From the NCBI GenBank assembly GCA_044229845.1, contig JBGASG010000002.1, positions 288,001 through 352,000 of the forward strand: a stretch of 64,000 nt of DNA, in the 5' to 3' direction. The position numbers were made by a program, and so were the translations under genes. The notes under the pieces are model-generated. The model was given only the letters and a program-made list of their open reading frames with translations, had not been told where the DNA came from and searched no databases. Position 1 is the first letter of the stretch. Each line of letters begins with the position of its first letter. The DNA is from Candidatus Obscuribacteraceae bacterium (GTDB lineage: Bacteria; Cyanobacteriota; Vampirovibrionia; Obscuribacterales; Obscuribacteraceae). Positions 22,763-59,318 of this stretch are shown here, piece by piece.

Positions 22763-22769
22763 GATAGAT

Positions 22770-27268: not shown

Positions 27269-27271
27269 AGA

Positions 27272-28834: not shown

Positions 28835-28919
28835 AATGGTTCGCCGGCAACAATCGGTTCACTGAGAACGTACCAAATGTGCGTTCGAATATTGTGCAAA
28901 CATTGTGTAAGTCGGGGGG

Positions 28920-29795: not shown

Positions 29796-29853
29796 GATGC
29801 CGAGCCTCCCGCCGTGCTCACCGCGCTGTTCACCGTCCGGCTCACCGCCCCGT

Positions 29854-32839: not shown

Positions 32840-33370
32840 CTAGCTTGAAGGATCTCTGCTGGCAAGAGTGCGTTGTGCGCGCTCAGCAGCGGACTTCACG
32901 AGCGCCAGGCGTTGTTTGACTTTAGCTTTCGTGAATTGGTTGACGAACATCTGCGGCAGACCGGTGTCTACGAAATTGGTCAACTGCAGCTCGGTGGTGT
33001 TGTTGTCGACCGGCTTCAAGACCCAGCTTCCAGACATGTCTTTGAACTTATCAGACTTCACCATGTGATAGTCGATGCGTTGATGGGGCACTTCATTTGA
33101 CTGAAACAAAACTGTTGCAGTACCGATGACAGGCAGTTTGCTGAACTTTTGTTCAAGCATCGAAGTGTTACCACTGCGAGACAGAACTTTACTGTAGATG
33201 AGATCTGGATCAGTGCTCCGTTGATCGGCTACAGCCTGCCATACCACTTTAGGTGGGGCCTCGATGATGATCGAACTGGAAACACCTTTGGATTTTGCAT
33301 GTGATTCCAGAGTCATGGCCGGCATGAAGCTCACAGCCATACCGATGGAAAGCGCAAGGAGACTCCGCAT
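32840..33370 (-). CDS. Secreted SRPBCC/START (polyketide cyclase-like) protein
   Basis: Signal peptide; I.APP..VW, RIDYHM...FK..SGSW.L.P pattern. Confidence 0.8.
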   Translation of the reverse strand: MRSLLALSIGMAVSFMPAMTLESHAKSKGVSSSIIIEAPPKVVWQAVADQRSTDPDLIYSKVLSRSGNTSMLEQKFSKLPVIGTATVLFQSNEVPHQRIDYHMVKSDKFKDMSGSWVLKPVDNNTTELQLTNFVDTGLPQMFVNQFTKAKVKQRLALVKSAAERAQRTLASRDPSS

Positions 33371-33535
33371 TGATACCTACCTCTGGCATTTCGCCGCCAG
33401 ACACACAACCGCTTACGTAGGTCTTTTGACGTAGTGGTCGTTTTCGTGTTCCAAACGGTGCAAAAGGATATACAAAGGGCGCCAAATTCACCTGACTCAT
33501 CTATAATTACAACTGGGCTGTTAAGGAATTTAATC

Positions 33536-34228
33536 GTGCGATTCGCCATAGGCCTTGTGGTCGCAGGTTTACTGTTGATGTGTTCGATTGCCGTTGCACC
33601 GGCGGTGCAGGCGGCAAACCCTGAAATTGCCACCAGTGTGCCGCATGTCACTGCCAGCGCCTCATCACTTCTCGAAGAGATGGAGACACATGCCTCCACA
33701 TTGAATGAATACAAATACGAGTGTGAAATCACCAGCCAGAAAGGCAGCAAGACCATCAAAGAGCAGGGGACTTTCTACTTTAAGAAACCCAATTCGATTC
33801 GCGTCGACGTCACCGCTGGACCAAAGAATGGCTCAGTCGCCGTACTGCGACCAGATGGTAAAGTGCGTGGACATATGGGTGGTTTGCTGAAGTATTTCAC
33901 GGGCACTGTTTCCGCTGATTCTTCTTTGCTGACCAGCACCACCGGTTTCTCACTGGTGCGCTCCGACTATAGAACACTGGCCACCGAACTGCGCAAGTAT
34001 GTGCGCCAGGGCTGGACCGCCGACGTGGAACGCACCGCCAGTGGTGGCAACTACGTCTTACAAATGAAGTCGCCGGAAGGCAAATTGGGCAAACGGATCA
34101 CGGTCGACGAAAAAACATACTTGCCTCTCGAGTGGGAAAACACATCGGGCGGTAAGTCCATCTCAGTATGCAAGTTCCGCAACGTCGTCGTCAATCCTGG
34201 TTTCTCCTCGACGCTTTTCAAAATTTAG
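33536..34228 (+). CDS. LolA-like periplasmic carrier/sorting protein
   Basis: Signal peptide; G.FYFKKPN.IR, VDEKTYLP, F.NV.VNPG...LF; GTG start after AAGGA. Confidence 0.75.
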   Translation: MRFAIGLVVAGLLLMCSIAVAPAVQAANPEIATSVPHVTASASSLLEEMETHASTLNEYKYECEITSQKGSKTIKEQGTFYFKKPNSIRVDVTAGPKNGSVAVLRPDGKVRGHMGGLLKYFTGTVSADSSLLTSTTGFSLVRSDYRTLATELRKYVRQGWTADVERTASGGNYVLQMKSPEGKLGKRITVDEKTYLPLEWENTSGGKSISVCKFRNVVVNPGFSSTLFKI

Positions 34229-34243
34229 TTCCCAGTCCCAGAC

Positions 34244-37200
34244 CTAGGGTCTGCTCAGCTGCGCCTCGTCCGGATTGAGCATGACGCATAATGCCGTGGC
34301 ATAACGTTCGTTGACGCGCGTCGCCACCGGGCAGCGATATGGCTGTGCACCATACTGCGTGTTGATCGTCGTTGCAACTATTGCTTCACCGCCGGCCGCA
34401 TCAAATTTTTCAACCACAAATCCATTGCGGAAGGCGCCCTGAAAACCGGTTCCCAACGCCTTCGCCAGGGCTTCCTTGGCACACCATAGTTGTGCCACCA
34501 GTCGATCGCGGTCGACGCCGGTGACTGCGGAAAACAAATTTTGCTCCCCTTCGGAAAAGGCAAATTCAATAAATTCTTGATCGCGCGGCGCAATCGTCTG
34601 TAAATCGACACCGATCGGATATTCCGAATTGATGGCTACCGCGACGGCGACATCATCAGAGTGGGCAATCGAAATCCAGGGCGCCCAGCCCAGCACCTGA
34701 GCCAGCAAGGGTGAAATCACCGGACGCCCGCTTTCGTCATAGACGATCTCGACATCTTGATCCAGAAGACGCACCCCGCTGTGCCGCATCACCAGTTTGC
34801 GCACAGCTTCCTTGGCGGCGATGCGTCCGAGCAGCCACTGCGCTTTGCGCTGTTCCTCGCGCGCATGGGCACGCCAGAGGGCGCGTTCCGGCTCGGTAAG
34901 CAGATAATCGGCACACCAATCGACAACCACGGGGTCGGCTGAAAGAACGCTCTGCTCGCAGATTGCCGCCTCGCCATAGGAAGGGAGCGACATGTGCGAC
35001 AGCAATTCCGGAGCCGGTTGCGAAAACGACTGACTGGACGGGTCGTGTACAAAGTTGAGCCAGTTCTCGTCCAGAGCTATGCGCCGGCTGCTGATGTTGT
35101 TGAGGCGCAAGAGTAAGTTGCCGTCGTCGTTTGCGACCTCGACCGAAGCTTGAGTACCGCGCTCGGTTATGGCATGCAACTGCGCGCGTCCAAAAACTAG
35201 GTCCTGCAAATTGGGATACGCGAAGAACTCGATCGACTCTATATGAAAGGGCAAGAGCGCGATCACGGGCACCGGCTGTTCGAACAAATGGAATAACACC
35301 AGCTGACTGGCATTGTCCAGCAGCAATGGATTGAGAAGGAAGAGCGGTGACTGCAGCGAGCCAAACCACCCTTGCGGTTGGCGATCTGTGACCTCGCCGG
35401 TGATGGCGCGCGGAGCAACCGCAGTCAGGCGGCTAACCGCCTGCATACGCGGCCCGTGAAACATTGTGTACGGCGTATAAAGATCCGCGCCGGACAGGTG
35501 CGCGGCTCGCGCCTCCGGCAGCGCAGTAGTGGTGGCGTGCGGCAAGGGCGGATAGCCGTCTGCAAAGACTACATCGCAACTCATCATGGCATCTGCGGTC
35601 TCATCGTTTCCACGCCAGAGTTGCACCTGCACACGGTTTTGGGCGGCGAGAGTAGCAATGGCGCGCACGGCAAATCCCTCGGCGCCCACACGAATTCGTT
35701 CGCTGGCCCGCACGTTCTCCACTTTTACCACCGCTTTGTTGGTGCAGAGCATGGAGGCTGCCTCAGCCATAATCTCCAGTGCCACCATCAAAGGCAGCAG
35801 GTGCACTCGCTCACCGAATCCGAACAACTGCCTGACCGTGCCGCCGATGGCGTGGTCAAGCAAATACTGGTCCTCATTTAGTGTAAGCAGGTAGAGGACA
35901 TCGATCTGTCCCTCCGCCAACTGGCGAATGGTGCCCCGCAAAAACGGCAACCCCGACGACTCGACCTGTCCGCCGGTCTGTCCCATGTAAGCGTGGAAAA
36001 CCTGTCCTTGCACAGACATCAGTTGCTGATGAAAGCCCGCCATTGTCTGCAAATACTGCGCAACGGCCTCCGACCCACCGGCACTGACCGGCAACGACTC
36101 GGCGGCATATCCGGCCGGCGCGGCAGCGGCGTATCCGGTCTGGGGCTCGGCGTACGCCACCGTTGACGGTGCCGGCTGCGAGTAGACATGCGCTGCCAGT
36201 TTGGCGGCCATCCCCTGAGTAAACTGCGGATCTAGTTTCAGTTCGGGATACTTCAAGTCCAGCTTCTGCGGGCGCGAAGGCGGCGCCGCCACAGCTGAGA
36301 GGTCCAGCGAGTGCGGTGCCCGCTTACTGTAAAGGTTGAGCAGATTCATGTGCACGCCCTGCACGAACAGCTGTGCGAGCAGATGATGTATCTGCGTCAC
36401 GGCCGGGCGTCCGGCAAGATTGGAGGCGACCGCCACGTGTACTTTGTCGGCAAGAATGTCGCCGACCAGAGTAGTCAATCCCCCTTTCGGTCCGACTTCC
36501 ACGAAGACGCGTACACCCTCGGCGTACATACGCTCAATCGTTTCTCTCAGTTTGATCGGCTTCGAGAATAGCTCCGTGGTGATGCGGCGAATCGCCTCCG
36601 GATCGCGCGGCATCTCGCCGCCAGTGGAGCACAGCCAGGCGGTCTTGCTGGGCGCAGTGAAAGCCAGTTCACGAAACTCTTTCTGGCTGGTATCAATAGA
36701 ATCTTTAACCAGCTCGGTATGGTACGGAATGGCAATCGGCAAGAAGTGGAAGTCCACTGAATTCTGCTTCAGCACTTCGGCGCATCGTTTCATCGCCTCT
36801 TCCGAACCGGTCAAAATCACGTGCTGCGGTGCCAGATATGAAGACAGAAAGACGGGATTGGGAATCTGCATGAGCAGCGGCTCAACCGCTTCGTAGTCGG
36901 CAAACACACGCATGCTGCGCAGTTCTTCCAGTCGCTCTTCGGGCACCGCCTGAGCACGTCGATGCTGCCCGACATAGTAATCGCCGCGAACTCGCCGGTG
37001 CTGCAACCGAGCAAGATATCCGGCTCGATTTCGAGGCTGCGCAGAAGCTCCGACAGAGCAAATTCGACCATCAAAACAGTGACGACGGCGGCATCCATTT
37101 TGGCCAGAGCCCCGGGGTCATCGCCGGAGGCCGTGCGCGGGAAGATTTTGGTGCTGGGCAGTTCGAGCTCGCCATTTTGCACAGCCAGGAAGTCGACATA

Positions 37201-39078
37201 ATCGAATACTTCGCGCACGTCAGGAAACTGCGCACACAGGTCGGCCAGCATGTTGGTGTAGGCGGAACCAAGACCGGGCAGGAGAAACGCCATCTTGCCC
37301 CGCGTGGCACTCTCAGGATTACGATAGTAAATGCCTGTCAGGTTGCCGTCCAAGCGCGGGCTGCGCTTGCTCAGCTCTTCAGCGAGCGCTGAGAGTTTCT
37401 GCAGAATGTCCTCGCGCGACCTGACGATCAATGCAGCACGATGCTGCATCTTTTCGTTGGGCTCGACAAAGTTCCACGAAAACGCCAGGTCCTTCAGGTC
37501 GACATTCTCGTGTGCCTCTACATAGCACCAGAGGTCGTGCGCCTTGCGACTGAGCGCTTCCGGAGAGTCTGCATTGAGAACAATCAATTCCGAATCCCAG
37601 GCATGCAGTTTCGACTGAAACTGATAGCTGGCTCGCTTGTCGTCTGGAGCTTCTTCGAGCACCACGTGGGCATTGATACCGCCAAATCCAAAAGCGCTGA
37701 CGGCCGCACGCCGCGGCTGGGCTTTCGTGTCCCAGGCAGCCGGATGGATCCAGGGACGCGTGCGGCTGTTGATATAACAAGGATGGCGATCCCAGCCGAC
37801 CTTGGCCAGCGGTTTCTCAACATGCAACGTCGGCGGCAACACTTTTTCATGGAGAGCCAGCGCCGTCTTGATCAAGCCCGCCGCCCCACTGGCTGCCTGG
37901 CAGTGACCGATCATCGACTTCACAGAACCCAGGGCACACCAGGAGCCTTTCGCTTCACCGCGCCACGCCTGCGCGATCGCTTGCAGTTCAGCCAGGTCAC
38001 CAGCAGTGGTGCCGGTGCCGTGCGCCTCCAGAAGAGCGATGCTGGATGGCGAAACTTGCGCCATCTCCAATGCCCGCTCGATTGCCAGCGCCTCGCCGTC
38101 CACAGAGGGAGCCAGCACGCTGGTGCCGGCGCCGTCGCTCGATGACCCGACCCCGATGATCGTGGCATATATGCGATCGCCGTCGGCAATGGCATCCTGC
38201 AACCGTTTCATCACCAGAATTCCGGCTCCTTCGCCGAGCAAGGTGCCATCGGCACGCTCATCGAAGGGGCGCAGCACGCCGGCGCGCGAAACGGCTCCCA
38301 GCCCACAGAACATCTGAAAGAAATATGCGCACGAGTTGATGTGAATGCCGCCGGCGACGACAAGATCCGCCTGCAATGAAAGCAAGTCGCGCACACCCAT
38401 TTCGACGGCTATCAAAGATGACGCGCATGCGGCATCCAGGACCAGGTTTCGTCCCTGAAAACCGAGCTTGCTGGCGATACGCCCGGCAATGACGTTCGGC
38501 ATGACACCGGGAATGGTGTCGGCATTGCACTGCTTGAGGCTGGCTCGCAGAGCCAATTCGATCTGGTGCAGATCATCACGGCTGTACTGGGGGCAGAGGG
38601 CATGCAAGGCATCCAGCACTTGCGCCACGGTCTGACCGTTCTGAATCAGGTTCATGGCGCCGACAGATGGTGCCATCGTCCGCCCCAGTATCACCTGAGC
38701 CTTTTCACGCTCGAATTCGCGCGTGGCATAACCGGCATCGGCCATGGCATCCAGAGCCAGTCGCAAAGCCAGCAGCTGATCAGGATCGGTGCCCGGAATG
38801 CTGTTCGGCATGACGCCGTACTTCAATGGATCGAAATCAGCGTACTCGGTGATGAAACCGGCCCGCGTCATATAGGAATGCTGAAACGCTCTCTCCGGAG
38901 GCGGCGGAGCGGACAATCCGGCGGAGTTCTGACCGTAGCGCGACGCGTCCCACTCATTGGGCGACACATCGCGAATAGAATCGACCCCGTTGACCAGGTT
39001 AGCCCAGTAACGCGTCAGGTCGGCCGCGCCTGGAAACAGTGCGGACATCCCGATGATCGCAACCGCCGGTCTAGTCAC
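34244..39078 (-). pseudogene. Type I PKS KS-AT-DH-PPTase, interrupted by a frameshift at ~36950 (ORFs 36817-39078 and 34244-37006)
   Basis: KS: DAACASS, EAHGTGT, IGHCQAASG. AT: GCSTGE then PYHT in the second frame. DH: LDHAIGG..LLP, LLDNASQ. Sfp-type PPTase: GRIAAKEA, SIAHS, GVD, WCAKEA. Confidence 0.85.
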
Positions 39079-39108
39079 AGGAGGTCTCCCGCAACTCGGC
39101 CGGGCTTA

Positions 39109-42100
39109 TCATTGGCTTGACCCCGACCTTAGAGCTTTGGGTTGGGAAGCGAAACGATTCAACGACTTGTTGCCGATGCCGCCCAGTCCTTCCACTACCA
39201 TCACCAGCTGATTCTGCTCGTTGTAGATAGCCAGATCGCAGAGCAGTTCGGTCTTGCCGGTATCCGGCGGAATAAAGACGCGACCAGTGAACGTGGTGCC
39301 CAGCGGTGCCTTGAAGTAGTGCAGCGCTTTGAAGCCGGTCGGTAACACTGTGATGTCGAGGTAGTGGCGAGCCCACACGCCGGCTAACTGCATAGCGCTG
39401 TCGAAGAGGATCGGATCGATCACCCACTCGGTCGCGCCAGGAGTCTGCAAGCATTCAGCAGGAGCGGATGGCGCCAGCGAGCCGACGATGCCGTCGATGC
39501 CGAGCGCGGACAATCCGGTGATGCCCTGGAATGCCGGTCCGTGGAACATGTAGTTGGTGTAGATGTGCTTCACCGTGGGCGGAGTCGCCTCCGCCTGTTC
39601 CAGAGTCGGTGCGTGAAAGGCGACCGGTACGGAAGTGGTGGCACCGGTAACTGTCGTGCCGCTGGTTTGCGACGGCGACGCACCCAACTCAATCAATGAC
39701 TTGAAGTGCACTTTGCCGGAGGCATTGCTGACGGAAACCCGCGCCAGCACCACCTGATTGGCGTGGCTCTCGGCAGTCACTTTGACGACCATCTTTTTGC
39801 TGGCAGTGTCAAAGACCAGCCCGGACGGAATATCCATTTCGGTGATGCGACGCAGCGTCATCCCGGGGAAGGTGGCGATGGCGGCTTCAGACATCAATTC
39901 CAGCGCAAATGCCATAGGCAGCACCGGCACTCCGTCGAACTTGTGGTCGTCGAGATAGCGGTCTTCGCCTGTGGACAGCGTCACTTCAAACTCAGCTTCA
40001 CCGGGTTGCGCACGGCGCACCTGGGCTTGACCGAGGCGCGCTCCCGCAGCCTTGACGGATGAGGCATCCAGCAGTTCACCACCACTGCCACCGCCGGTGT
40101 CGGACAGCTTGCCGACCAGCATTACTTCCGCATCGGATTTCTTGCCGTGCTGCAATTCTTCTATAAAGGAACGGCGGCCGTCGCCAACTTCGATCATCGC
40201 CCAGCCGTAGCGGGCAAATATTTCTTCCAGCTCCGGTTGCGCCATGCCGGCTTTCCACGGTCCCCACAGAAGTGAGGCGACGCGAGCATCGGTGGTCTGG
40301 TTCAGTTGTTGAGCCAGCTTGTTGAGGACTTCGTTGGCGGAGACGTAGTCGGATTGACCGGCGTTGCCTGTGCGTCCGACGATGGAGGAGAAGAAAGTGA
40401 GAAACTTCAGAGTGTCGAAGCGCAAGGCGGATGCCAGTGAGAACGCGCTGTTGACCTTGGTGAAGAAGACCCGATCAAACGACTCGACGGTCTTATCTTT
40501 GATATACGCATCTTCGATGATGCCGGCACCGTGTACGACACCATCGATGTTGCCGAACGATTCGTAGAGATTGCCAATGAATTCAGTAAACGCTTTCCGG
40601 TCGCGCACATCCACCGAGTTGTACATGACGGAGGCGCCCGCCTTGCGGATGCGAGCCAGGTTGTTGCGCACTTCGCGCTCGCGCATCAACTGCTGGTAGA
40701 TCGTCTCGACGCCGGCTACCGATACCGGTTTGCCCTGCGCCTTCAGTTTCTCCATGATGGCGGCTTTCACTTCGCGTGCCGTCTGGAAAGCAGCAGTAGA
40801 AGCATCTTCTTCGTCGACAGGCTTAGGCAGTCTGCCCACCAGAATGATCTGCGGCTGGTACTTTTCTGCCAGTTCAACCGCGATTTCCGCGGTGATACCG
40901 CGAGCACCACCGGTGATCAGAATTACGGACGACTTGTCCAGTTTCATGCCGCTGGTCAACTTTGTATCGACAGGAACCGCGACGATGTCCAATCCAAGAC
41001 GCTGCTCGCCTTGATAAGCAATTTCCACGACATCGCAATCGTGAGTCAATTCTTTCAGAATCAACTCAGCTCGCTGAGCCGGCTTCACCGCCGATTGAAA
41101 GTCCACGCATCGCACTTGCAGGTGCGCCCACTCTTTCTTGAATGTCTTGGTCAATCCCACGACGGCCGCCGAGACCGGCAGCGTGCTCGGTGACTCTTTG
41201 ACGCCGTCGAATCCAAAGGCGCCGCCCAGATCCACGGCTGAGACAACCGCGACACGCTGCTTGCTGCCGCTGAAATGCGGATGCAATGCTTTGCCCAGCA
41301 GGAAGAGCGAACGCACCGCCTGAGCCGACTTCTCGACGTCGTCACCGTCCACGTCCAACGCGGACAGATGAACAATCGCATCAATGGGAGCTTTCACCCC
41401 TGTCAGTTTCTTCTGCAGCGTTTCGGCACTGGCAAAGTCTTCGGACTTCAGCAAAGTGACGCTGGCGCCTTCGGTCTTCAGTTTCGAAGAAACTTTCTCA
41501 GCCAGCCCTTTGCCATCACCGATCACGATCGCCGAGGTGATCTTCGCGGGCTTTCCCTCGAGAGACACCGCTATCAGTTGCACTTGTCCGCGGCTCACTT
41601 CTTTGGCGAGCGTCGGTCCGGCTTCTGTCGATGCAACATTTGATGAGTTGATAGGGGAGGAAACGGTTCCGGCTGCGGCAGTTGCGTCGGTTGCAGCCGT
41701 GGCTTGGGCGGCTGGACCACCGCCACCGATATTTTCGCTCTTAATCCAATCGATGATGCCTTGCAGGGTTTTGGTGCCGGCGAGTTGCTCCAGGCTGCCC
41801 TCTAAGTGATCTTGCGTCGATTGAGGCAACAGCTTGCGGAAGCTGTTGAGAATTTCGACTCGCTTAATAGAATCGATGCCCAGATCGGCCTCCAGATCCA
41901 GTGCGGGATCGAGCATTTCCGGTGGGTAGCCGGTGCGTTGACTGACAATTTCCAGAAGTCCGGCAATCAGCTGCTCGGCGTTCATAGATTGGTCAGCAGC
42001 TTCATTGGACGGATCGCCACCATTGTTGCCGTGGTTGTGCGCATGGGGATCGCTGCCGTTACCGGAAGCGGCATAGCCGCTCGGGTCATGTCCGTTGGAG

Positions 42101-45100
42101 TCGGCAGAACTCGGAGCCACAGCCGACTGGGGCAGGGGCTGCGCGAATTGCTGCGGCTGCGCGTGTTGTGGGAACTGCGGTTGGGCGTATTGCTGCGGTT
42201 GGGCAAACTGCTGCATCGGCAACGGTTGCACCGGGATTTGCATTTGCGGTTGCTGGAATTGTTGGAACTGCGGTGCCTGGAACTGCGGTTGCGGGAACTG
42301 CGGCATCTGCGGAGCATAGCCTTGCGGCTGGGCCCCCAGGTAAGCCAGCATGACACGCTGTTGAGTTTCGAGGAAGCTCTGCGTCATCTGCAGCATGGTT
42401 TGCTGGAATTGCATCATCACGGCTGCCGAAGCCGGGTCGATGCCGGCTCTGCCGGCTGCCGGGAGCACCGGCATGGGCACCGCCGTGGGCAGAGCGTAGG
42501 CGGTGGGAGCGGGCACGCCTTGCGGTGCGCCTTGCTGGGCAGGCACCGCCTGTGATGCGGGCAGCGGGCGACCGATTGCCGCCGCTTGTGGTTGCATTGC
42601 AGACACTGGGGGCGGCGGTTTGGGCAACGCATTCGCTGTTGCTTGCACCAGCGGCTGAGCGGGCAGCGGAGCGTGCTGTCCGTGTCCATTGCCGTTCCCA
42701 TTGCCATGACCGTTGCCGTGGCCGTTGCCATTGCCGTTACCGTTGCCACCGAAGGGCTCAGATATCGTTCCGGAGATCGGTTGCATATTGACGTGACCCG
42801 ACGTTTTGCCGTTTCCGCCGTTGTTTCCGTTTGCGCCATTGTCCATGGGGCCAGTCGTCGCTCCCTGTATCTTCTTGAACGTCGCCGACACAGCTTGCTG
42901 TGTCGAAGGCGTTCCTATCCGCTTGATCTGCGCGCTGTTGACGCGATAAATCAATTTGCCGCGAGCCGCTTTGGGCTGCCGCTCAAAATCTGCTTCCAGC
43001 GCCCGGGTCGCTATTCCCGGACGACTAAACAATCTGGAAAGGTCAGCCCGCACGCCATGAACCAGCAATTGAGCCAGCACATGCTGCAACTGTGTGATGC
43101 CATGCTTGCCGTTGCGATCGCTCGCCACAGCCACATGCTCACGGTCTTCCAGAATTGCGGAGACGAGTCCGGTCAGCACTTGCCCGGGACCCACTTCGAT
43201 AAATATGCGTGCTCCGTCGTCATGCATGCGCTGCACTTCGCCGACGAAGTTGACCGGCTCTACCAGGTGCTGAGCCAGGGACGACGCAAACTTGCCTTCG
43301 TGCGGGACAGTGGTCGTGTTGGAGTAGACCGGCAGCTCAGGTTCACGGAACTCGATCTTCTTAAGGGCGGTTTCCAGTTCGGTGCGGGCAGCCTGCATGA
43401 GTGGGCTGTGGAAAGCAGCCGAAACTGCGATTGGCTTGTTCGCCACACCCTCGCGGGTGAGCGCTTCGCACGCATCTTTGATATCAGCATGCGCACCGGA
43501 AATGATTGTCTGGTTGGGAGCGTTGATGTTGGCGATCACCACGCCGGGATGCGACTTCAGCGCTGTCTTCACTTTATCGGCTGGCGCGGCGACGGCAGCC
43601 ATGGTGCCGGTCTCGCCACCCACAGGACGAGCCAGGAGGCGTCCGCGCAACTCCGAGATATCAAACAGATCTTGTTGCGAGACGGAACCGGCCGCGTAGA
43701 GGGCGACGTACTCGCCGTAGCTGTGTCCCGCCACCATATTCGGTGTGACGCCGAGTGCAGCAAGCAAGTGGAACATAGCCAGGTCGGCCGCACCAACAGC
43801 CGGTTGGGCCACGTGTGTATCGGTGAGCGCGGTCTGCTGCTGCTTGCGTTCTTCGTCGCTGAAAGCCGGTGCCGGATAGACGTAATTGCTCAGCGGTGCC
43901 GCATAGCATTTAGCCAGTTGCTTGTCGGCAGCGGTGAACGTGTCGCGGATCTCCGGGAAGTAGAGGGAGAGTTGCCGCAGCATGTCGACGCGCTGCGAAC
44001 CCTGTCCCGGGAAAAGGAAAGCAATCTTGCCGGCTGGCGCCAGTGGTTTCTCCACAAAGAAAATGCCGCGCGGGTCATTTATAAATGCAACGCCTTCATC
44101 TAATTTGACAGCCGCGAAAGCGGCTTTGGTTTCCAGGTCAGCGGCGCTTTGCGCCACGATAGCCACGGTCAAGGCGGCATCGGAGCGCTCAGCGGCGCGC
44201 GTGTAGAGGTTGTAGGACAGGTCTGCCAGGGCGCGCGCATCATCGCTGGTGCACTGCGAACGAGCGCTGTCGGACTGCTGTGCCACCAATTTTTTGGCAG
44301 TTTCCTGAGCCGCATGCAGAGCTTTGCTCAGGTCGGCTTTGGTGTTAGCACGCCAGACAAACAGTTCAGTCGGCAGCGTCTCTGAGACTGTCTCAGGGTC
44401 GCTGCTCGGATGTCCGGTGTACTCTTCCAGAACGGTGTGGAAATTGGTGCCGCCAAATCCGAAAGCGCTGACGCCGGCACGGCGCGGCTGCTCTGCGGTG
44501 TGCACCCAGGGACGCGCTTCCGAGTTGATGTAGAACGGGCTTTCTTCAAAGCGGCAGCTCGGGTTGGGCTGCTGGACGCCGATTGTCGGCGGCAAAACTT
44601 TATGGTGTAGCGACTTGGCGATTTTTATCAGCGAGGCCAGTCCGGCGGCGCACTTGCTGTGCCCGATGTTGGTCTTCACCGAACCTATGGCGCAAGCGCG
44701 GTCAGCCGCATCGTGGGCACGGAAGACGCGAGTCAATGCTTCGACTTCGGCTCTGTCACCAGCTACGGTGCCGGTGCCATGAGCTTCGACCAGTTCGACG
44801 GTGGAAGGCGAGAGTCCGGCGTCTTCGTAGGCGCGATTGAGTGCCACCATCTGCCCGGCCGGACGCGGCGCAGTCAAGCTCAGGTCGCGGCCGTCGCTGC
44901 TGCCGCCGATGCCTTTGATCACGGCGTAAATCTTGTCGCCGTCGCGCTCCGCGTCGGAGAGACGCTTGAGGACAAGCATGGCAATGCCTTCGGAGATGAC
45001 GATGCCGTCGGCGGTGGCATCGAAGGTGCGGCAACGTCCACCAGGCGACAGTGCATGCGTGTTGCTGAAACTCAGGTAGTCGCCGGGCTGGTTGTGAGTG

Positions 45101-47907: not shown

Positions 47908-48167
47908 TTGAAATCCCATCAGCGGCAATGCAATCCTTTGCCGTTAAAAACTGCGTGCGCCATGAATTCGCAAAACCCGCAACACCGAACCTCTTCGGGC
48001 GTCATAGAGTATATAAATTCAAATAGGCGCAACCATTGAAGAGGTTTTAAGAAGCAAAGCAAAAAGCCTATGAGCGCCGTGTGAGAACTTGCCAACAGTT
48101 AAAGATTATGTTTTGTTACTCCGCCCAAAACGGCGCCGGTGCTCGATCAATATGCGCTGTCCATGCT

Positions 48168-49358
48168 TCAGGAAATGACAAGAGTTTCAGTTGGGCTTCG
48201 TAACTCATAGGTGATACCGCGCCACTGAATTCGGTTCGTGATTACGGAATACAAAGTTAACCAGGGCAAAACAAAATGGGCCAGGGGGATGGCCATACAG
48301 GAAGCAGCCAGCGACTCCTGCAGGTAGCTTTGGCGATCAGAGAGAACCCGTTGCCAGAGCCCACGGGCATGCAGCAAGAACCAGATTTCCACCGGGAAAA
48401 TGCAGGCGCCGGCCATGGTCGCAAGCCCGAAAGCCATATCGCCTGTAGCCAACCAACCGATGACGGCAAAAGACATGGCAAACAGCCAGACCGCCATCAG
48501 AGTTGCGCGCACGATGGCTCTCCGCCAGAGTTTCGGGTAATAGACCTTAGTGAGAATCAGCTGGCGGTTGGTCCACTCGAAAATTTCAGCAACGGTCTGG
48601 TCGCCGTCGCTTGCCACCAGGCATTGCGGTACGAAGTGAACGCGCAGTCCCAACTCTTTAACGGCGGTGGTGAGAGACAAATCATCATCACAGGCGCGGT
48701 CCCAATGGTCGGCCACACGCGCCTCTTCGAAGATCGAGCGGCGAATAGCCATGGCGCCGCCCCATGCGAATGCATCCGGACCAGCCATTTCCCAAGCCGA
48801 CATGCGATTCCAGAGAGAGCGAAGAACCGATGGCCAGTTGGTTACAGAGGCGATGTAAAACCGGTAACCGGTGCAGACGCCGATCTGCGGATTTTGCAAC
48901 GGAGCCACCAGATGACGAAGGAAGTCCTGACGGGCAATCACGTCGGCATCAACGAATACGATTACTTCCGTGTCGGATGAGACATCTTTAAGCGCTCGCA
49001 GCTGATTGTTGACCTTCTGTGCCCTCTGCGGATTGACGCCGGCGATCACGATCGCGGTGCGAACTTGATTTTGCTCGGCACAAATTTCCTTTAAAGCTGG
49101 ATATGCAGGATCGGCTTCGGAAGCTAAACAAAAGATCACCTGAAAGTCCGGGTAGTCTTGAGAGAGCAACTTGCGAATATTGTCGTGAAAACCGACGTCC
49201 AAACCCTTGCACGGGAGAATGACTGTGGTCCTGGGCACGTATGGCGCTAAGGGTCGATTTAGCTCCGCTTGTACATAGTTGAACAATCGCTTGAAGGCGA
49301 TCGATTGCACTACCGCTACGATGATGGTCATCGCCAGAAGCAAAAGAACAATCGTCAT
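48168..49358 (-). CDS. GT2/GT21 ceramide glucosyltransferase (HpnI-like) family glycosyltransferase
   Basis: N-terminal TM, ILPCKG, QKVNNQ, FVDAD, WGGAMA, DDDLSL, W..RQ, C-terminal TMs and I.WRG..Y; start placed at MTIVLL. Confidence 0.85.
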   Translation of the reverse strand: MTIVLLLLAMTIIVAVVQSIAFKRLFNYVQAELNRPLAPYVPRTTVILPCKGLDVGFHDNIRKLLSQDYPDFQVIFCLASEADPAYPALKEICAEQNQVRTAIVIAGVNPQRAQKVNNQLRALKDVSSDTEVIVFVDADVIARQDFLRHLVAPLQNPQIGVCTGYRFYIASVTNWPSVLRSLWNRMSAWEMAGPDAFAWGGAMAIRRSIFEEARVADHWDRACDDDLSLTTAVKELGLRVHFVPQCLVASDGDQTVAEIFEWTNRQLILTKVYYPKLWRRAIVRATLMAVWLFAMSFAVIGWLATGDMAFGLATMAGACIFPVEIWFLLHARGLWQRVLSDRQSYLQESLAASCMAIPLAHFVLPWLTLYSVITNRIQWRGITYELRSPTETLVIS

Positions 49359-49453
49359 AGAAAACCCTATAGGTGAGCTCCGGCTTCCGTCCGGAACTGG
49401 CAGTATAATGCCAAAATTCGATTTTTGTTGTCCTCGAAGACCGGAGACGATGC

Positions 49454-51133
49454 GTGTTTCGCAAGGTTCTATATTCAGCATTCAGCCTGCTCGGTGAGCG
49501 CCAGGTAAAACGCTTTATGCAGGCCAGCACTGAGCCGCGCGCCGCACAGCAGGCTCAATTGATGAGCATAATTTCAAGCAATAAAACGTCGCAGTTCGGG
49601 CGTCAACATGATTTCTCTTCAATCAAAGACATTCGTGACTTTCAGTCGGCAGTCCCGATCACTGATTACGAGGAGATGCGTCCCTGGGTCGAACGGGCGA
49701 CCGGTGGACAGTCGGCAGTTTTGACCAGCGACGACCCCGTCATGTTTGCCACTACCAGTGGTACCACAGCCCAGCCCAAATACATTCCGATAACCAAAGG
49801 ATATATCGAAGAGTTTCGCCGGGCATCAGTCGTATCGGGGTACTTCCTGCTAAAGAATTTCCCGCAGCTGGTCAACGGCACGACGCTTTCAGTCGTCTCC
49901 CCCGCCGAAGAGGGGCGCACGCCGGGGGGCACGCCCTACGGCGCTATTTCCGGGCAGCTGTTTCGCCAGGAGCCATTCCTTATAAAGAAGTACATCTCCC
50001 CTATTCCTTATGATGTGTTTTTGATCAAGGATTACGAGACCAAGTACTACACGCTTCTAAGATTGGCGCTGTCCCTGCCGGTTTCGGTCTTCTACACACT
50101 CAACCCGAGCACGATCGCCTTGCTCTGCCGGCGCCTGCAGAAATATGCACCGGATCTGGTGCGAGACATAAGAGACGGCACCATCACACCTCCCACTCCG
50201 CTTTCCCAAACAACGCTGGCGGCAGTGAAGCATTTTCTCTCGCCCGATCCGGCGCGGGCCGCGCAGCTGGCGCTGCTCGCCGAACAGGGTCAGTTCGTGC
50301 CCCACAAACTCTGGCCGACCTTGCAGGTCGTCTCCTGCTGGACCAAAGCAGCAGCCAGTTTTTATCTCGCCGACTTTCCGGAGTTTTTCGGGAAGGTGCC
50401 GGTCTGCGATATTACTTACGGCGCCAGCGAAGGACGCGGCACTGTATTCATCGGTCCCAATCAACAAATGCTGGCACTACTCTGTCACTTCTTCGAATTC
50501 ATAGCCGAAGACGAGATCGACAGCCCTCAGCCGCAGGTGCTGCTCGCCGATCAGTTAGAGCTGGGGCGCAATTACTTCATTTTGTTCACGACCTCGGGCG
50601 GACTCTATCGCTACAACATAAATGATGTCGTGAAGGTGGTCGGTTTTCACAACGCCACCCCACTTCTGGAATTCCAGTACAAAGGCGGCAACATCTGTTC
50701 CTTTACAGGAGAGAAAATCACCGAGTTGCAAGTCACGCGGGCGATGTCGGAAGCGATGGCGCAAACCGGCGTACAGACTCGTTTCTTCACGGTGCTGCCC
50801 GAGTTCAGACCCAACCCTCACTACGAAGTGTGGATCGAGCCGCTCGACCAGCTGCCACCACAGACAGTATCGATATTGACCAGCGCTTTTGACGAAATTC
50901 TCGGCAAGTTAAACGTCGAATACAAGACGAAACGTGACTCGTTACGACTGGACGATGTGTCGGCCAGACTGATCGCACCTGGCACCTATGAGAGTTTTCG
51001 CAAACACCTGGTGAGCGCCGGTGTCGCAGACGCACAAATCAAAGTCAGCCATCTCAATCCCAAGCAAGAGACGCGCGACTATTTCCAGCAGGCATTGATC
51101 AGTGAGGGCAGCACCGCATGGGCGACCGCATAA
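49454..51133 (+). CDS. GH3-family (auxin-responsive) acyl-adenylate/amide ligase
   Basis: VPITDYE, TTSGTT..PKYIP, YGASEG, FFEFI, GLYRYNINDVV, GEKITE. Confidence 0.92.
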   Translation: MFRKVLYSAFSLLGERQVKRFMQASTEPRAAQQAQLMSIISSNKTSQFGRQHDFSSIKDIRDFQSAVPITDYEEMRPWVERATGGQSAVLTSDDPVMFATTSGTTAQPKYIPITKGYIEEFRRASVVSGYFLLKNFPQLVNGTTLSVVSPAEEGRTPGGTPYGAISGQLFRQEPFLIKKYISPIPYDVFLIKDYETKYYTLLRLALSLPVSVFYTLNPSTIALLCRRLQKYAPDLVRDIRDGTITPPTPLSQTTLAAVKHFLSPDPARAAQLALLAEQGQFVPHKLWPTLQVVSCWTKAAASFYLADFPEFFGKVPVCDITYGASEGRGTVFIGPNQQMLALLCHFFEFIAEDEIDSPQPQVLLADQLELGRNYFILFTTSGGLYRYNINDVVKVVGFHNATPLLEFQYKGGNICSFTGEKITELQVTRAMSEAMAQTGVQTRFFTVLPEFRPNPHYEVWIEPLDQLPPQTVSILTSAFDEILGKLNVEYKTKRDSLRLDDVSARLIAPGTYESFRKHLVSAGVADAQIKVSHLNPKQETRDYFQQALISEGSTAWATA

Positions 51134-52314
51134 AGGTAGCTCTGCTCAGCTGCGGTCTCGGGCACGTCACACGTGGTTTCGAGGTCTCTACGCTGCGCTG
51201 GTATGAAGCCCTCAAGCGCCAGGGCGACCTGGATGTGAAACTTTTTGCCGGGGGCAAGTATCCCGACACGCACTGGGTGTGGAATCTGAACCGCGACGGC
51301 GCCCTTAATGTGCCGTTTCGTCATTTTCCGTTTCTAGACGAGAAGCAGCAGTGGGAATTCAGTTATGGGGCTGAACAGGTCAGCTTCGGCTGCTCGTTCA
51401 TAGTCGAGCAGTTTCGCTTTTTTCGCCCGGACATCGTCTGGACAAAAGAAGCACCGCTCGCCCACGTCATCGATTTCTGGCGACAGTTGTTAGGTCTTGA
51501 TTTCAAAATCATCTTCGCCAACGGCGGCGCGTTCAATCCGCGCACTTATCGCCAGTTCGACTTCATCCAGCACCTGCAGCCCGATTCGATGGCGCAGGCA
51601 TTGGCGTTCGGACTGCCGGAAGCGCAGATGAACATCATTCCCAACGTTGTGCAGCCTCTGCCACCGTCGGCGGCGCGCACCAAACTGCGCGCTCAGTACG
51701 GCTTGCAACCGGACGACTTCGCCATCGTCAGCGTGGCCGCCTGGAATCAGTATCATAAACGCATCGGCTACATAATCGAAGAAGTAAGCCGGCTCAGCGA
51801 CCCGCGCATCAAACTGATATTGTGCGGACAGAGCGAAACAGAAACACCGCCCCTGCAGGAGAAGGCGGCGCGACTCTTGCCTGGTCGCGTCTTCTGGCTT
51901 TCGGTGCCGCCCCGAGAAGTATTCGACGTGCTTTACGCCAGCGATCTTTTCGCCCTCGCCAGCCTCAACGAGGGGCTGGGCATGGCAGTGATCGAAGCAG
52001 CCATGGCCGGTCTGCCGGTAATCTGCCACCCGCACGGCGGCAGCCGCTATATAGTCGACAACGAGCAATACTGGTTGCGCGACTTGAGTCAAGAAGGCTC
52101 GCTGTCGCGTCGCATCACCGAAATTCGCCGGCAGGGCATCGACCCGGCACGCCTGGCGGCGCTCAAACGCCAGGTGCGCGAACGATTTGGTGAGCAAGCG
52201 CTGGTCAGCGAATTCACCACCATGGTCGAGCGCCTGGTCGGGCGCAGCACCAGATTTGATACCACCGTCGCGAGCGATGAGCACCTGGCGTCCCTGCCGG
52301 GCAGAGACTCGTGA
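51118..52314 (+). CDS. GT4 glycosyltransferase
   Basis: RGFE, HKR, EGLGMAVIEAAMAGLPVI (EX7E motif); overlaps the GH3 stop. Confidence 0.92.
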   Translation: MGDRIKVALLSCGLGHVTRGFEVSTLRWYEALKRQGDLDVKLFAGGKYPDTHWVWNLNRDGALNVPFRHFPFLDEKQQWEFSYGAEQVSFGCSFIVEQFRFFRPDIVWTKEAPLAHVIDFWRQLLGLDFKIIFANGGAFNPRTYRQFDFIQHLQPDSMAQALAFGLPEAQMNIIPNVVQPLPPSAARTKLRAQYGLQPDDFAIVSVAAWNQYHKRIGYIIEEVSRLSDPRIKLILCGQSETETPPLQEKAARLLPGRVFWLSVPPREVFDVLYASDLFALASLNEGLGMAVIEAAMAGLPVICHPHGGSRYIVDNEQYWLRDLSQEGSLSRRITEIRRQGIDPARLAALKRQVRERFGEQALVSEFTTMVERLVGRSTRFDTTVASDEHLASLPGRDS

Positions 52315-53906
52315 GCGAAACCTACGTCAAGCTCACCCGTTCACAGCTAATTGCCACCATTATCGGTTTGCAGCTGTCGCTACTGGTTGCCGCCGTCGAT
52401 CAAACGATCGTCGCGGCGGCCATGCCGATCATGGTAGCCAATCTGGGCGGCTTCGACAGATATGCCTGGGTGACCACAGCCTATCTGCTCACATCGACGA
52501 CGGCGGTGCCGATTTTCGGTAAGCTCTCAGACCTGTACGGGCGCAAGTGGCTCTTGCTCTTCGGAGTAGTTTTGTTCGTGGTTTCATCGATGTTCTGCGG
52601 ACTGGCAGGACAATATGATTTGCCCGGCATGGACGGCATGACCCAATTGATTGCAGCGCGGGCGCTGCAAGGACTGGGCGGAGGCATCATCATGTCACTG
52701 ACGTTTGCCTCGGTGGGCGACATTTTTTCGCCGGCGGAACGGGGCAAGTATCAAGGCATATTCGCCTCCGTCTTCGCACTTTCCGGTCTGGCCGGTCCCG
52801 CACTCGGCGGTTTCATCTCCGAAAAATTCTCCTGGCGCTGGGTGTTTTACATCAACCTGCCGATCGGCATCATTGCTTGCCTGGCGCTGATTCTGGCGTT
52901 TCCCAATTTGCAAACCGGCAGGCGCCGTCCCGAGATCGATTACCTGGGTATAGGTCTTTTGATCGGTTTTGTGGTGCCGTTGCTCCTGGCACTGAATATG
53001 GTGACCAACCCGCGCGAATTCTACAGCGCCGGCGCGCTGTTTTTGCTGTCGGCAATCATGCTGGTATTGCTTTTGATGACCGAAGCGCAGGCGGTCGAGC
53101 CGATTATTCCGCTGCAAATTCTCAGGCAGCCGATCGCAGCCGTATCTTTGATCACCGTCTTCATTACGGGAATCGGCATGTTCGGCTCGACCATGTTGCT
53201 GCCGATCTTTTTCCAGTCGGTGATGGGCCTTTCACCAACCATGTCGGGCTCGTTGCTTACTCCTTTGATGGTGACCGTAGCTGTAGGCAGCACCTTATCT
53301 GGTGCGATGCTTTCGAAGTTCGGCAAATACAAGACTCTCGCCCTCACAGGCTGCACCGGCATGGCCCTGGGCACGGCTCTGCTCGGTTTCCTGACAGGCA
53401 GCCGATCGCTGCCGCCAATCCTGGGCTCGATGGTTGTCAGTGGAATCGGACTGGGGCTTTTGCTGCCGATGTACACAATTGTCATCCAGAACTCGTTGCC
53501 CCAATCGCAGCTGGGTCTGGCTACCGGACTGACGCAATTTTTCCGGACGCTGGGCGGGGCCCTGGGTAGCGCCGTTTTCGGGCTTACGATTCTTTATCTA
53601 TATAATGGCAAGCTGGGAGAGAGTTTACCCAATAATCTGCCGGAAAGCGTCCGCCAGGCTGTCAGTGATCCCCTGAATCCCGGTAAACTTAGGGCTGTCA
53701 TCGAGGGTCATCTTGGCAACACCGCGCAAGCAAGCGATCTATTGCATTCAGTTCAGATAGCACTGATGCATGCCATCGGAACCGTGTTCGTCATTTATGG
53801 AACCCTCCTGTTCTCAGTCGTCATACTCAATTTGTTTCTGAAGGAAATTCCGCTGCGGAAGAAGCCGGCGAATGAACCGAATGAACTCCAAGTTTCTACT
53901 GAATAG
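52311..53906 (+). CDS. MFS DHA2 (14-TM) efflux transporter
   Basis: DQTIV, GKLSDLYGRK, RALQGLGGG, WRWVFYINLPIG; GTGA overlap with the GT4 gene. Confidence 0.93.
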   Translation: MSETYVKLTRSQLIATIIGLQLSLLVAAVDQTIVAAAMPIMVANLGGFDRYAWVTTAYLLTSTTAVPIFGKLSDLYGRKWLLLFGVVLFVVSSMFCGLAGQYDLPGMDGMTQLIAARALQGLGGGIIMSLTFASVGDIFSPAERGKYQGIFASVFALSGLAGPALGGFISEKFSWRWVFYINLPIGIIACLALILAFPNLQTGRRRPEIDYLGIGLLIGFVVPLLLALNMVTNPREFYSAGALFLLSAIMLVLLLMTEAQAVEPIIPLQILRQPIAAVSLITVFITGIGMFGSTMLLPIFFQSVMGLSPTMSGSLLTPLMVTVAVGSTLSGAMLSKFGKYKTLALTGCTGMALGTALLGFLTGSRSLPPILGSMVVSGIGLGLLLPMYTIVIQNSLPQSQLGLATGLTQFFRTLGGALGSAVFGLTILYLYNGKLGESLPNNLPESVRQAVSDPLNPGKLRAVIEGHLGNTAQASDLLHSVQIALMHAIGTVFVIYGTLLFSVVILNLFLKEIPLRKKPANEPNELQVSTE

Positions 53907-54981
53907 TTTGTTGTCGACAATAATGCTCGGCACGATGGCGTTGCCGACAATGGCTGCCGATAGCAATGGCACCGACGCTGATGGACAGTTTCTGGCTATC
54001 AAAAAACCAAAGTCAGGATTGACCGGCGGCGTGCAAGAGAACATCACACCAACCTCGGTGGTGCGCGAGAACGTCAACGAGTTTTCGCAGTCGCTGAAAA
54101 TTCCCATTATCAAATGGTCACAGCACGACAGTCAGGCACCACAAGCTGTGCTGGTCGCCCTGCACGGCTCGACGCTGCACAGCGGCGTCTTCGAAGAGTT
54201 TTCTCGGCAAATGGTCGGCCGCGGCTACATGGTAGTAGCACCGGACATGCGCGGATTTGGACGGTGGCGCACCGACCCGAAAAATTTTGAGAACGGCACC
54301 AAAATCGAGTTCTACAAAGACCGCGCCGATCTCGTCAATCTCTTGCAGATGCTGCGCAATCAATATCCCAAGACACCGCTCTATTGCATCGGCGAAAGTT
54401 TGGGCGGCAACCTGTCACTGTGGGTGGCCAGCGTCCATCCCGATCTCGTAGACGGCATCATTCTCTCCAGTCCGTGCATCAAGCGGCACTGGTGCATCAA
54501 CCGCACACTGGCAGTCGACTTCTTCAAAGCGGCGCGCTTCCCTCACCGCCAGGTGCCGACGGCACCATACGCCAAGCGCTATCTCTCCGAGAGCAAAGAA
54601 GTGACGGCGGCGTATCTGGCCGATCCCGGCATCAGAAAAGCGATGACTGCATACGAGTCATTCCAGAGTTTTCACGTCAATCGTTCGTGCTTGCTGTATG
54701 CGGAGAACGTTCCCCCGGACATGCCGATTCTCGTGATTGAAGGAACGAACGATCGCATGTACGTGGCCAAAGCGGTAGGACCGCTGATGAAACGCGTCCC
54801 GTCCAGCGATGAAACAGTCCATTATCTGAAGAATCGCGGACACATTCATTTGGAGACCCCGCACATCAAAGACGATGTGGTGGAGACGGTAGATGATTGG
54901 CTGCGTATCCATATTCAGACTGAGTCGGCGCGCAAGCGCAGCACTCCGGCTTCAATTTCCGCCAATCCAGAGCAGCTCTAG
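53881..54981 (+). CDS. Secreted lysophospholipase-like alpha/beta hydrolase
   Basis: Signal peptide; HGSTLH, DMRGFG, GESLGG, EGTND, RGH (intact triad). Confidence 0.88.
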   Translation: MNSKFLLNSLLSTIMLGTMALPTMAADSNGTDADGQFLAIKKPKSGLTGGVQENITPTSVVRENVNEFSQSLKIPIIKWSQHDSQAPQAVLVALHGSTLHSGVFEEFSRQMVGRGYMVVAPDMRGFGRWRTDPKNFENGTKIEFYKDRADLVNLLQMLRNQYPKTPLYCIGESLGGNLSLWVASVHPDLVDGIILSSPCIKRHWCINRTLAVDFFKAARFPHRQVPTAPYAKRYLSESKEVTAAYLADPGIRKAMTAYESFQSFHVNRSCLLYAENVPPDMPILVIEGTNDRMYVAKAVGPLMKRVPSSDETVHYLKNRGHIHLETPHIKDDVVETVDDWLRIHIQTESARKRSTPASISANPEQL

Positions 54982-55241
54982 AATTGTCCCTGTTCGACCG
55001 CGGGCTTTTGTGGCGTCGTGCCGGCTTGTGGCGCGGTAGATTGACCAGTGCCGCGTTCTTCCGGAGGAATCCAGGCCGGTTGCTCGAACTTAAGTGAGTC
55101 GGTAGGAGCAGTGATCATCGTGCCCCCGTTCAAGCTCAGGGCGTACACACCGCCAAAGATGGCGAATGCCGCCAGGCTGACGATAGTAATAATCAAGGTC
55201 AAGCTGGCCGATTTTTGGGCGGGCGGTTGGTAGTTTCTCAT
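54978..55241 (-). CDS. Small single-TM hypothetical protein
   Basis: MRNYQPP start after GGAG; one TM helix and a P/Q/T-rich tail. Confidence 0.6.
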   Translation of the reverse strand: MRNYQPPAQKSASLTLIITIVSLAAFAIFGGVYALSLNGGTMITAPTDSLKFEQPAWIPPEERGTGQSTAPQAGTTPQKPAVEQGQF

Positions 55242-55486
55242 TCTCAGAAGGTCTCCCGGAGGACGCGCAAATTGGGGCTGGGCAATACTGACTGGATCGA
55301 TAGACGTCGACGTAGGTGCATGTTCCCGATTGTGGCACTTTGCAAATGATTGCGCCAATCGGTCGGCGGGCGCGCCTAAACGGAACCGGCTCAACGTTAT
55401 GGAGAAACTACAAGCCAGGGCGGGGTTACCCCGCTCAGGCATTTGGGCGATAAAATGATGTATCGCGACAACGGAGTACAGTACCA

Positions 55487-58812: not shown

Positions 58813-58998
58813 TCAAAGCTCGTCTGCTGCGAAAACAGTAGAGTTTCACGGTTGAGCTTGCGGGCCGTCACGAAAATCTGGGAACTGGCGGCTGCCAAAT
58901 AGCATCGTTCTGGGCAGAGTTAGTGCGCTGCAGTGGATTGGCAGCGTAATTTATTGGTCCCAAACGGGCGCCTGGGCGGCGTTCCCGGAGGTATTGCT

Positions 58999-59280: not shown

Positions 59281-59318
59281 CCATGCAACTTTGCGAGCCA
59301 TCGAACGTCGCTCGGTAC

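Follow-up and report, generated by a model that had tools for sequence, protein, structure and literature searches.

A gene cluster at positions 32840..54981 of a 64,000-nucleotide stretch of DNA (hereafter the window) from a Candidatus Obscuribacterales genome was examined in the present study. Its core comprises a GH3 ligase gene, a gene for a glycosyltransferase (GT) resembling family GT21 and two polyketide synthase (PKS) genes, in the order GH3 <> GT21-like GT > PKS1 (ER-KS-AT-ACP-KR-DH) > PKS2 (KS-AT-DH-PPTase), where <> denotes divergent and > co-oriented neighbours and the domains are enoyl reductase (ER), ketosynthase (KS), acyltransferase (AT), acyl carrier protein (ACP), ketoreductase (KR), dehydratase (DH) and phosphopantetheinyl transferase (PPTase). 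The parts are of known kinds, and their combination is a lineage-wide secondary-lipid cluster, a variant of the ArsA-type system, present in most members of an uncultured family that is related to Cyanobacteria but non-photosynthetic. Based on sequence comparisons we propose, at about even chances, that this gene set makes an amide-linked glycolipid: once a long acyl chain is released, the GH3 enzyme would amidate it, and the GT21-like enzyme and a GT4 enzyme would then add sugars. The features of the region are listed below.

32840..33370, minus strand: START-fold protein (Pfam score 30.7, cut-off 27.4); a neighbour, not a conserved part
33434..34228, plus strand: LolA-fold (DUF1571/MucB-like) protein (Pfam score 23.9, cut-off 23.6); a neighbour, not a conserved part
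34244..39078, minus strand: PKS2, KS - non-malonyl AT - DH - PPTase; core (AT and PPTase invariant), here in two frames
36949..36950, no strand: site of a 43-bp gap that shifts the PKS2 frame within the second AT (alignment with genome G001 and four of four sequencing runs)
39109..47928, minus strand: PKS1, 2939 aa, FabK/NMO-type ER - KS - malonyl AT - one ACP - KR - DH; core (Pfam and NCBIfam)
48168..49358, minus strand: GT2, a GT21-like membrane glycosyltransferase, 396 aa, single copy; core (HpnI hidden Markov model (HMM) score 112.6 bits against 310)
49359..49453, no strand: 95-bp spacer of the divergent GT2 and GH3 genes (GT2 ATG at 49358, GH3 GTG at 49454)
49454..51133, plus strand: GH3a, predicted acyl-adenylate/amide ligase of the PKS-linked clade; core (all three Pfam GH3 domains)
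51118..52314, plus strand: GT4 glycosyltransferase, single-copy ortholog; probable pathway member, co-occurring with GT2
52311..53906, plus strand: DHA2-type major facilitator superfamily (MFS) transporter; accessory, linked in a subset (18/35 loci)
53872..54981, plus strand: alpha/beta-hydrolase with a signal-like N-terminus; doubtful member (11/35 loci)

The original prediction, made from the sequence alone, had placed a GT21/HpnI-like gene co-oriented with the PKS genes and 95 bp from a divergent GH3 gene, followed by an overlapping GH3-GT4-MFS-hydrolase run. The 95-bp gap given for the former is exact, and for the latter the open reading frame (ORF) coordinates agree with the Pfam and NCBIfam names, the GH3/GT4, GT4/MFS and MFS/hydrolase overlaps being 16, 4 and 35 bp. 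The START- and LolA-like genes reported at the other end are also present, the second being marginal by score; the LolA-fold gene and PKS2 are on opposite strands and converge tail to tail, and PKS2 is separated from PKS1 by 30 bp. No sigma-70 consensus promoter was found in the 95-bp spacer, where a promoter scan gave nothing above chance. In four RNA runs, for which there was no silent control, the contigs were short, of low depth and confined to 1 to 15 of 30 bins.

Conservation was assessed in 47 Obscuribacterales-type loci; five others, which differ in context (L121, L124, L126, L127 and L129), were set apart. Some records labelled otherwise (e.g. Flavobacterium, Planktothrix, Chloroflexota) are counted among the 47, as they share the gene order at 50-55% identity; those homologs and loci that bear names are assigned to Ca. 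Obscuribacterales or Melainabacteria. The locus sample overlaps with the genome sample (some genomes occur in both), the genomes are related and often incomplete, and absence is given throughout as not found. GT2 is present in 43 and GH3 in 40 of the 47 loci, all misses being contigs that end within 1.7 kb upstream. The two genes are divergent neighbours upstream of PKS1 in every one of the 35 loci with at least 9 kb of upstream sequence, and among the same loci the MFS gene is present in 18, GT4 in 16, a hydrolase in 11 and START and LolA genes in none. PKS1, GT2 and GH3 (at least 53% identity) were each found in 21 of 24 same-family genomes, the same three genomes being without all of them. 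In a class-wide sample GT2 was found in 61/77 genomes of the family, 1/2 of the sister family and 0/171 others, and 14 of the 16 family genomes without GT2 were also without the PKS1 ER region and GH3a. The predicted linkage of GH3 and the GT21-like gene to the PKS is thus borne out in relatives (35/35 loci), the genes being gained and lost together.

GT4, a single-copy gene, occurs in 19/21 family genomes with GT2, in 1/16 without it and in 0/3 of the sister family, and GT2 and GT4 have been displaced jointly from the PKS as a divergent pair in G006, G016, G051 and G097. It accompanies GT2 even where unlinked. The genes fall into tiers, with GH3a, PKS1 and AT-PPTase in the first, followed by GT2, then GT4, then MFS. 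The MFS gene stays beside a displaced GT4 in G007 and G022 and was not found in several PKS-bearing genomes. The hydrolase is one of 16 paralogs in the genome and its linked copies do not form a clean ortholog group; it adjoins the displaced GT4 in G006 and lies no more than 5 kb from it in G020 and G013, and may have a late role. Signal-bearing Hydrolase_4 proteins are expanded in general, the 16 copies including those at window positions 53872-57124.

The START and LolA-fold proteins had been proposed as carriers of the product, and this part of the prediction is not supported. START follows PKS2 in 2/19 relatives and LolA in 1/19, with two more having a LolA-fold gene 23-24 kb away (the stretch available beyond PKS2 in these 19 relatives was 1.4 to 15 kb). 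START genes are multicopy in 35/37 family genomes, with up to eight per genome, including those without the PKS, and both genes have close paralogs at a different GH3 locus, described below. The nearest Atlas clusters of the LolA-fold protein are DUF1571/MucB/DUF2092. Both genes were rejected as pathway members on synteny and distribution. Other recurrent neighbours (proline dehydrogenase, MscL, TPR, a pyruvate-dehydrogenase-type operon and bestrophin) were set aside as subclade synteny with no clear link. Beyond PKS2, G005, G002 and G010 have a lipoyl synthase gene and a 2-oxoacid dehydrogenase operon (L047-L048, L033-L034 and L053-L054), which may supply precursors or may reflect only ancestral synteny.

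As judged from its domain content, PKS1 has the layout of an ArsA-type long-chain synthase and not that of a Pfa/Hgl polyunsaturated fatty acid (PUFA) synthase. Its catalytic residues are intact (C915/H1050/H1090, S1403/H1507, ACP S2020, KR Y2528, DH H2662/D2843). The earlier label 'Pfa/HglE-like' is apt in so far as PKS1 exceeds the cut-off of the NCBIfam PfaA subfamily (TIGR02813; 1206.6 against 1010.1), but not for the architecture. A single G[IVL]DS ACP motif is present in 14/14 orthologs (a count that leaves out the G020 row, a wrong ORF) in place of the tandem ACPs of Pfa type. Neither a KS-chain-length factor (CLF) didomain nor a FabA-type DH/isomerase pair was found in the PKS genes, where all DH matches are PKS-type, and no free-standing PfaD ER was found, a FabK/NMO-type ER being fused instead to the PKS1 N-terminus. 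The ars cluster (Azotobacter/Beijerinckia, type P of Shulse and Allen; ArsA-D) likewise has an ER fused N-terminally to KS-AT-ACP-KR and a partner ending in DH-PPTase (layout as in L133). Among 72,556 plasmid records, the best match to the PKS1 ER-KS-AT region (46.7% over 95% of the query) came from Beijerinckia indica, at a locus with the synthase, two type III PKSs, a DH-PPTase, a GT4 and an ABC exporter. Judging by strain name and gene content, this locus is probably a type P cluster. PMC3098273 lists this strain with Azotobacter as type P, with C22-C26 chains for phenolic lipids, and the ArsA-bound fatty acids are handed directly to ArsB and ArsC according to a review (PMC6274091). Unlike in the ars system, where a type III PKS lies between the synthase genes, none is present in the cluster here; a KS-AT is additionally present in the partner gene, PKS1 includes a DH of its own and a single ACP motif instead of two, and the GH3 and GT21-like genes are added, in a comparison that covers sequences other than those of Azotobacter.

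The KS1 domains of the order form one clade (support 100/99) that follows lineage. A quick KS tree grouped them with ars-like enzymes, apart from PfaA/HglE-type KS, whereas a careful tree did not fix their position and a PfaA-like grouping was not rejected (p-AU 0.059). The phylogenetic comparison with PfaA/HglE suggested in the original prediction thus separates the groups in the first tree and leaves the place of KS1 open in the second. We discarded it as proof of ArsA kinship, and the likeness rests on layout and similarity. ER-first synthases also occur in planctomycetes, a Syntrophobacteraceae genome, Streptomyces and a Rhodobacteraceae plasmid (L121, L126, L124, L135 and L136), with partners that differ between the groups (hydrolase, GT1 and methyltransferase, or TauD dioxygenase and methyltransferase), suggesting that the class swaps head-group modules. 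An uncharacterised two-gene cluster of Streptomyces (NZ_CP108492.1) resembles the present one in having an ER-KS-AT-ACP-KR synthase followed by KS-AT-DH-PPTase and a GT, but differs in its free ACP, hydrolase, GT1-type GT and methyltransferase and has no GH3.

The two PKS genes had been described as adjacent and iterative, which fits PKS1 but not PKS2, as the latter is without ACP and KR (Pfam/NCBIfam) and ends in a PPTase that had been overlooked. PKS2 occupies two frames in the window. The same-genus genome G001 has 43 more bases at this point and a single 1625-aa ORF, and the 43 extra letters at 36949/36950 are present in 4/4 sequencing runs from four studies, two of which are marked as potential sources of the window DNA. 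An assembly error is the most likely cause of the break, a strain variant being the alternative. On the evidence of the G001 alignment and the four runs, PKS2 was taken as intact in the species and its status as a pseudogene was rejected. The KS2 Cys-His-His triad is kept in 13/20 genomes and decayed in 7/20, much as the KS of PfaB is described as inactive, and DH2 is lost in four (G002, G005, G006 and G016), while Ser and His of the second AT (AT2) are kept in 20/20. Through decay of KS2 and sometimes DH2, PKS2 shrinks from about 1650 aa to 881-1468 aa in several genera, leaving AT-PPTase (G013, G006, G002, G007, G016, G005 and G020, L027-L052; G135 and G221, L148-L151).

AT2 is likely the chain exit, judging by its residues and distribution, and may release the long chain. 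The malonyl-binding Arg (+25) occurs in 2/46 distinct AT2 sequences and in 54/54 of the first AT; a His at -1 before the Ser occurs in 0/46 AT2 and the catalytic His in 46/46. PfaB, a terminal long-chain AT, shows the same loss of Arg (PMC12895367). No second AT is encoded in the ars-like clusters of Beijerinckia and Methylosinus, in which the synthase gene is followed by type III PKS genes. Chain release had been called unexplained in the original prediction; no HglB-type reductive release domain was found in 32840-54981, and the Arg-less AT2 is now a candidate. The hydrolase in the window is unlikely as the missing thioesterase, given its signal-like N-terminus, its many paralogs and its linkage in 11/35 loci.

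GH3a has the hallmarks of a GH3 amido synthetase, namely all three Pfam domains and three nucleotide-binding motifs, TSGTTAQPK, YGASE and GLYRYNIND, which match those listed in PMC12493201. It forms its own clade, sister to a second paralog, GH3b (FastTree, support 99; the G007 sequence, cut by the locus edge, was left out). Neither GH3a nor GT2 was found with this PKS in five genomes of other phyla, two of which hold unlinked GH3s at 35-36%, and GH3s in 40/400 genomes of the phylum are only 29-38% identical. The nearest functional parallel is the OlsH/OlsI ornithine-lipid pathway of planctomycetes, in which, as described in PMC12493201, the bacterial GH3 OlsH amidates free fatty acids with ATP, joining them to an amino acid, and an alpha/beta-hydrolase lies nearby. 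The ols operon as described there is without PKS or GT, and the hydrolase here, in contrast, looks secreted and is not a fixed part. On a Citrobacter plasmid (L164:7968-16568), a GH3 gene is followed by four radical SAM genes, an N-acetyltransferase and a PAP2 phosphatase.

GT2 has one N-terminal and two C-terminal hydrophobic segments. Its only PDB matches are to ceramide glucosyltransferase, at a weak E of 2.5e-9, with three Asp motifs and one Arg aligned, a likeness that links it to glycosphingolipid synthesis (GT21). It falls outside HpnI by score (112.6 against 310), and no squalene-hopene cyclase was found in this 88% complete genome (no PF13243 match). Serine palmitoyltransferase (SPT), which glycosphingolipid synthesis employs, was not found either among 7/19 PF00155 matches scanned (the six best and one in the window) of the same genome, where two proteins of the 8-amino-7-oxononanoate synthase (AONS) type are Kbl and BioF-like and score below SPT cut-offs. 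GT2 is thus without its two textbook acceptors. LpxC is present in the genome, and no match to GT2 was found in the plasmid records. Since a fully reduced chain carries no hydroxyl, the sugar would have to be attached either to the amine partner or to a hydroxyl that escapes reduction in the final cycle; the acceptor that most simply suits a GT21-like enzyme would be an N-acyl hydroxy amine.

For the proposed amide-linked glycolipid, the PPTase of PKS2 would prime the single ACP of PKS1, which would iterate KS-KR-DH-ER on malonyl units to build a long, mostly saturated chain, as ArsA does. AT2, without malonyl Arg and without a His beside its Ser, would unload the finished chain from the ACP as an acid, KS2 and DH2 being optional trims. 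GH3a would adenylate this acid and couple it to an amine, in the simplest case a hydroxy amino acid or an amino alcohol, so that the amide would have a ceramide-like head; the choice of amine is a guess. The GT21-like membrane enzyme would attach the first sugar and GT4 the second, and the MFS protein may export or flip the lipid in some lineages. A narrower version, which we advance tentatively as a minority possibility, has the cluster build a glycosphingolipid mimic without SPT, with an ArsA-type megasynthase, unloading by a PfaB-like AT, GH3 as a ceramide-synthase stand-in that N-acylates a hydroxy amine, and two sugars added by the GT21-like enzyme and GT4. If this were true, the lipid would be part of the envelope specifically in this order and would serve as a biomarker.

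Several observations weigh against an amide-linked glycolipid. The genomes are kin, and the conservation counts are therefore not independent events. G135 and G221 keep GH3a <> PKS1 > AT-PPTase with no GT2 or GT4 ortholog, indicating that glycosylation is not obligatory, and neither an aminotransferase gene nor any other gene for amine formation is conserved at the relatives' loci. GT2 is without the RW of the (Q/R)xxRW motif. GH3a scores 110.3 bits with the OlsH HMM against a cut-off of 620, and AT2 lies far under the PfaB family cut-off (22.4 against 144.3). According to PMC12895367, some PfaB homologs have hydrolase activity, transfer being argued as the main function and the bacterial PfaB being a transferase and not a hydrolase, which makes free-acid release by AT2 less certain. 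A GH3 gene also stands beside a modular PKS on a Streptomyces plasmid (L163:1-15383), together with genes for a P450, an aminotransferase, a dehydrogenase, an F420 oxidoreductase, an FAH hydrolase and ThrRS. This gene order is probably that of the borrelidin cluster, whose product has no amide.

The Streptomyces record makes a starter-activating role of GH3a a real rival, in which the enzyme would act upstream, activating a starter acid and loading it onto the PKS1 ACP via AT2 or directly, and a nitrogen-free chain would be glycosylated on its own hydroxyl as in heterocyst glycolipids. In its favour, neither GT follows the PKS as closely as GH3a, a non-malonyl AT could serve for starter loading no less than for product release, and the GH3 of L163 is presumably the borrelidin gene borL, with a starter role. 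Nevertheless, we consider this unlikely. No GH3 lies near the same ER-KS-AT-ACP-KR synthase in L133-L136, L121, L124 and L126, so the class needs none for initiation; the clusters without a second AT are precisely those in which type III PKSs accept the chain; an upstream GH3 would leave AT2 as the sole conserved release enzyme; and the characterised GH3s compared (OlsH and plant enzymes) are amide synthetases. Distinctly unlikely, in our view, is that the product, while carrying amide and sugar, is a secreted small molecule (surfactant, signal or antibiotic) rather than a structural membrane lipid. The linkage of an EmrB-like MFS gene in 18/35 loci, sometimes inserted inside the cluster, and the lack of the set in whole genera (g19, 0/6) would suit such a product, but the transporter was not found in many PKS-bearing genomes, and single-copy conservation in 61/77 family genomes and a KS clade that follows lineage are better suited to an envelope role.

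It is improbable that the cluster is half of a larger pathway in which the second GH3 locus supplies the amine head, a second acyl chain or carriers. The sister relationship of GH3a and GH3b and the presence of the second locus in 20/20 stretches, with START and LolA-fold paralogs, are consistent with this, but that locus is kept in PKS-less genomes (G003, G019, G024 and others), and the f2 genomes G026 and G027 (88% and 76% complete) carry the PKS cluster with one GH3 match only. We regard it as very improbable that PKS1 feeds an unlinked type III PKS to give ars-type phenolic lipids that are then glycosylated, with GH3a in a side role. This would accord with the ArsA-like layout of PKS1, with the unlinked type III PKS present in both the genome studied here (G000) and G001, and with the GT4 found in the Beijerinckia and Methylosinus ars-like clusters. 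It would leave the invariant AT2 and GH3a unexplained, however, and no type III PKS was found in G013, G016 and G221 (3/5 PKS-bearing genomes searched), while that of G000 has its own methyltransferase and FAD-oxidase neighbours, forming a small separate cluster of methyltransferase, FAD oxidoreductase and type III PKS (L181:3517-6482, G000:C18).

No published cluster with the present gene set was found in the literature searched, a search that had most subscription papers and MIBiG outside it, in agreement with the original prediction, which knew of no characterised cluster with this combination. Within their accessible portions, a 2026 survey of hybrid PUFA-synthase-like clusters (PMC13291983) contains no GH3, a 2026 amino-lipid review (PMC12971839) and a heterocyst glycolipid study (PMC11804610) do not contain the combination, and PMC12358690, PMC8487521 and PMC13386636 add nothing further on the cluster. 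The hgl island treated in PMC11804610 is comparable in that, within the same phylum, it combines a Pfa-related synthase and a glycosyltransferase to make a long-chain glycolipid, but here there is no HglB-type reductase, the synthase layout is different, and GH3 and GT21-like genes are present. Hand-off to a type III PKS is the sole well-described exit of this secondary-lipid synthase class; if the amide-linked glycolipid proposed here is correct, an Arg-less AT with a GH3 ligase would constitute a new route for adding head groups to the chains of megasynthases. A function would also be assigned to one of many uncharacterised bacterial GH3 clades, whose role is named as an open question in PMC12493201. 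Because about four in five of the Obscuribacteraceae genomes searched carry the set, which was not found in any of the 171 other members of the class, its product could serve as a lipid biomarker for organisms that are known almost exclusively through metagenomes.

The second conserved GH3 locus (L041:6056-16650; G000:C1, about 511000-521650) has the order START, ICMT-like methyltransferase, LolA-fold, TenA/CADD-like diiron protein <> alpha/beta-hydrolase, enolase-superfamily enzyme, GH3b and three extended short-chain dehydrogenases/reductases (SDRs), its START and LolA-fold genes being paralogs of those in the window. Among the 20 stretches fetched, GH3b is present in all, the enolase in 19 and the SDRs in most, and the locus also occurs in PKS-less genomes. 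It looks like a separate, undescribed amino-lipid pathway. An enolase-superfamily gene adjoins GH3 in 3/7 loci from other genomes of the cyanobacterial phylum (L182, L185 and L186), suggesting that the pair is older than this order. Elsewhere in the window, a minus-strand run at 20859-30654, 3.6 kb beyond PKS2, encodes an ABC-2 pair, an outer membrane factor, an RND pump, an adaptor and a two-component system; of the relatives whose stretches were compared, only G001 has this run next to the cluster. Downstream of the cluster, Hydrolase-DUF4384, caspase-TPR, HTH and TPR genes occupy positions 55487-60107.

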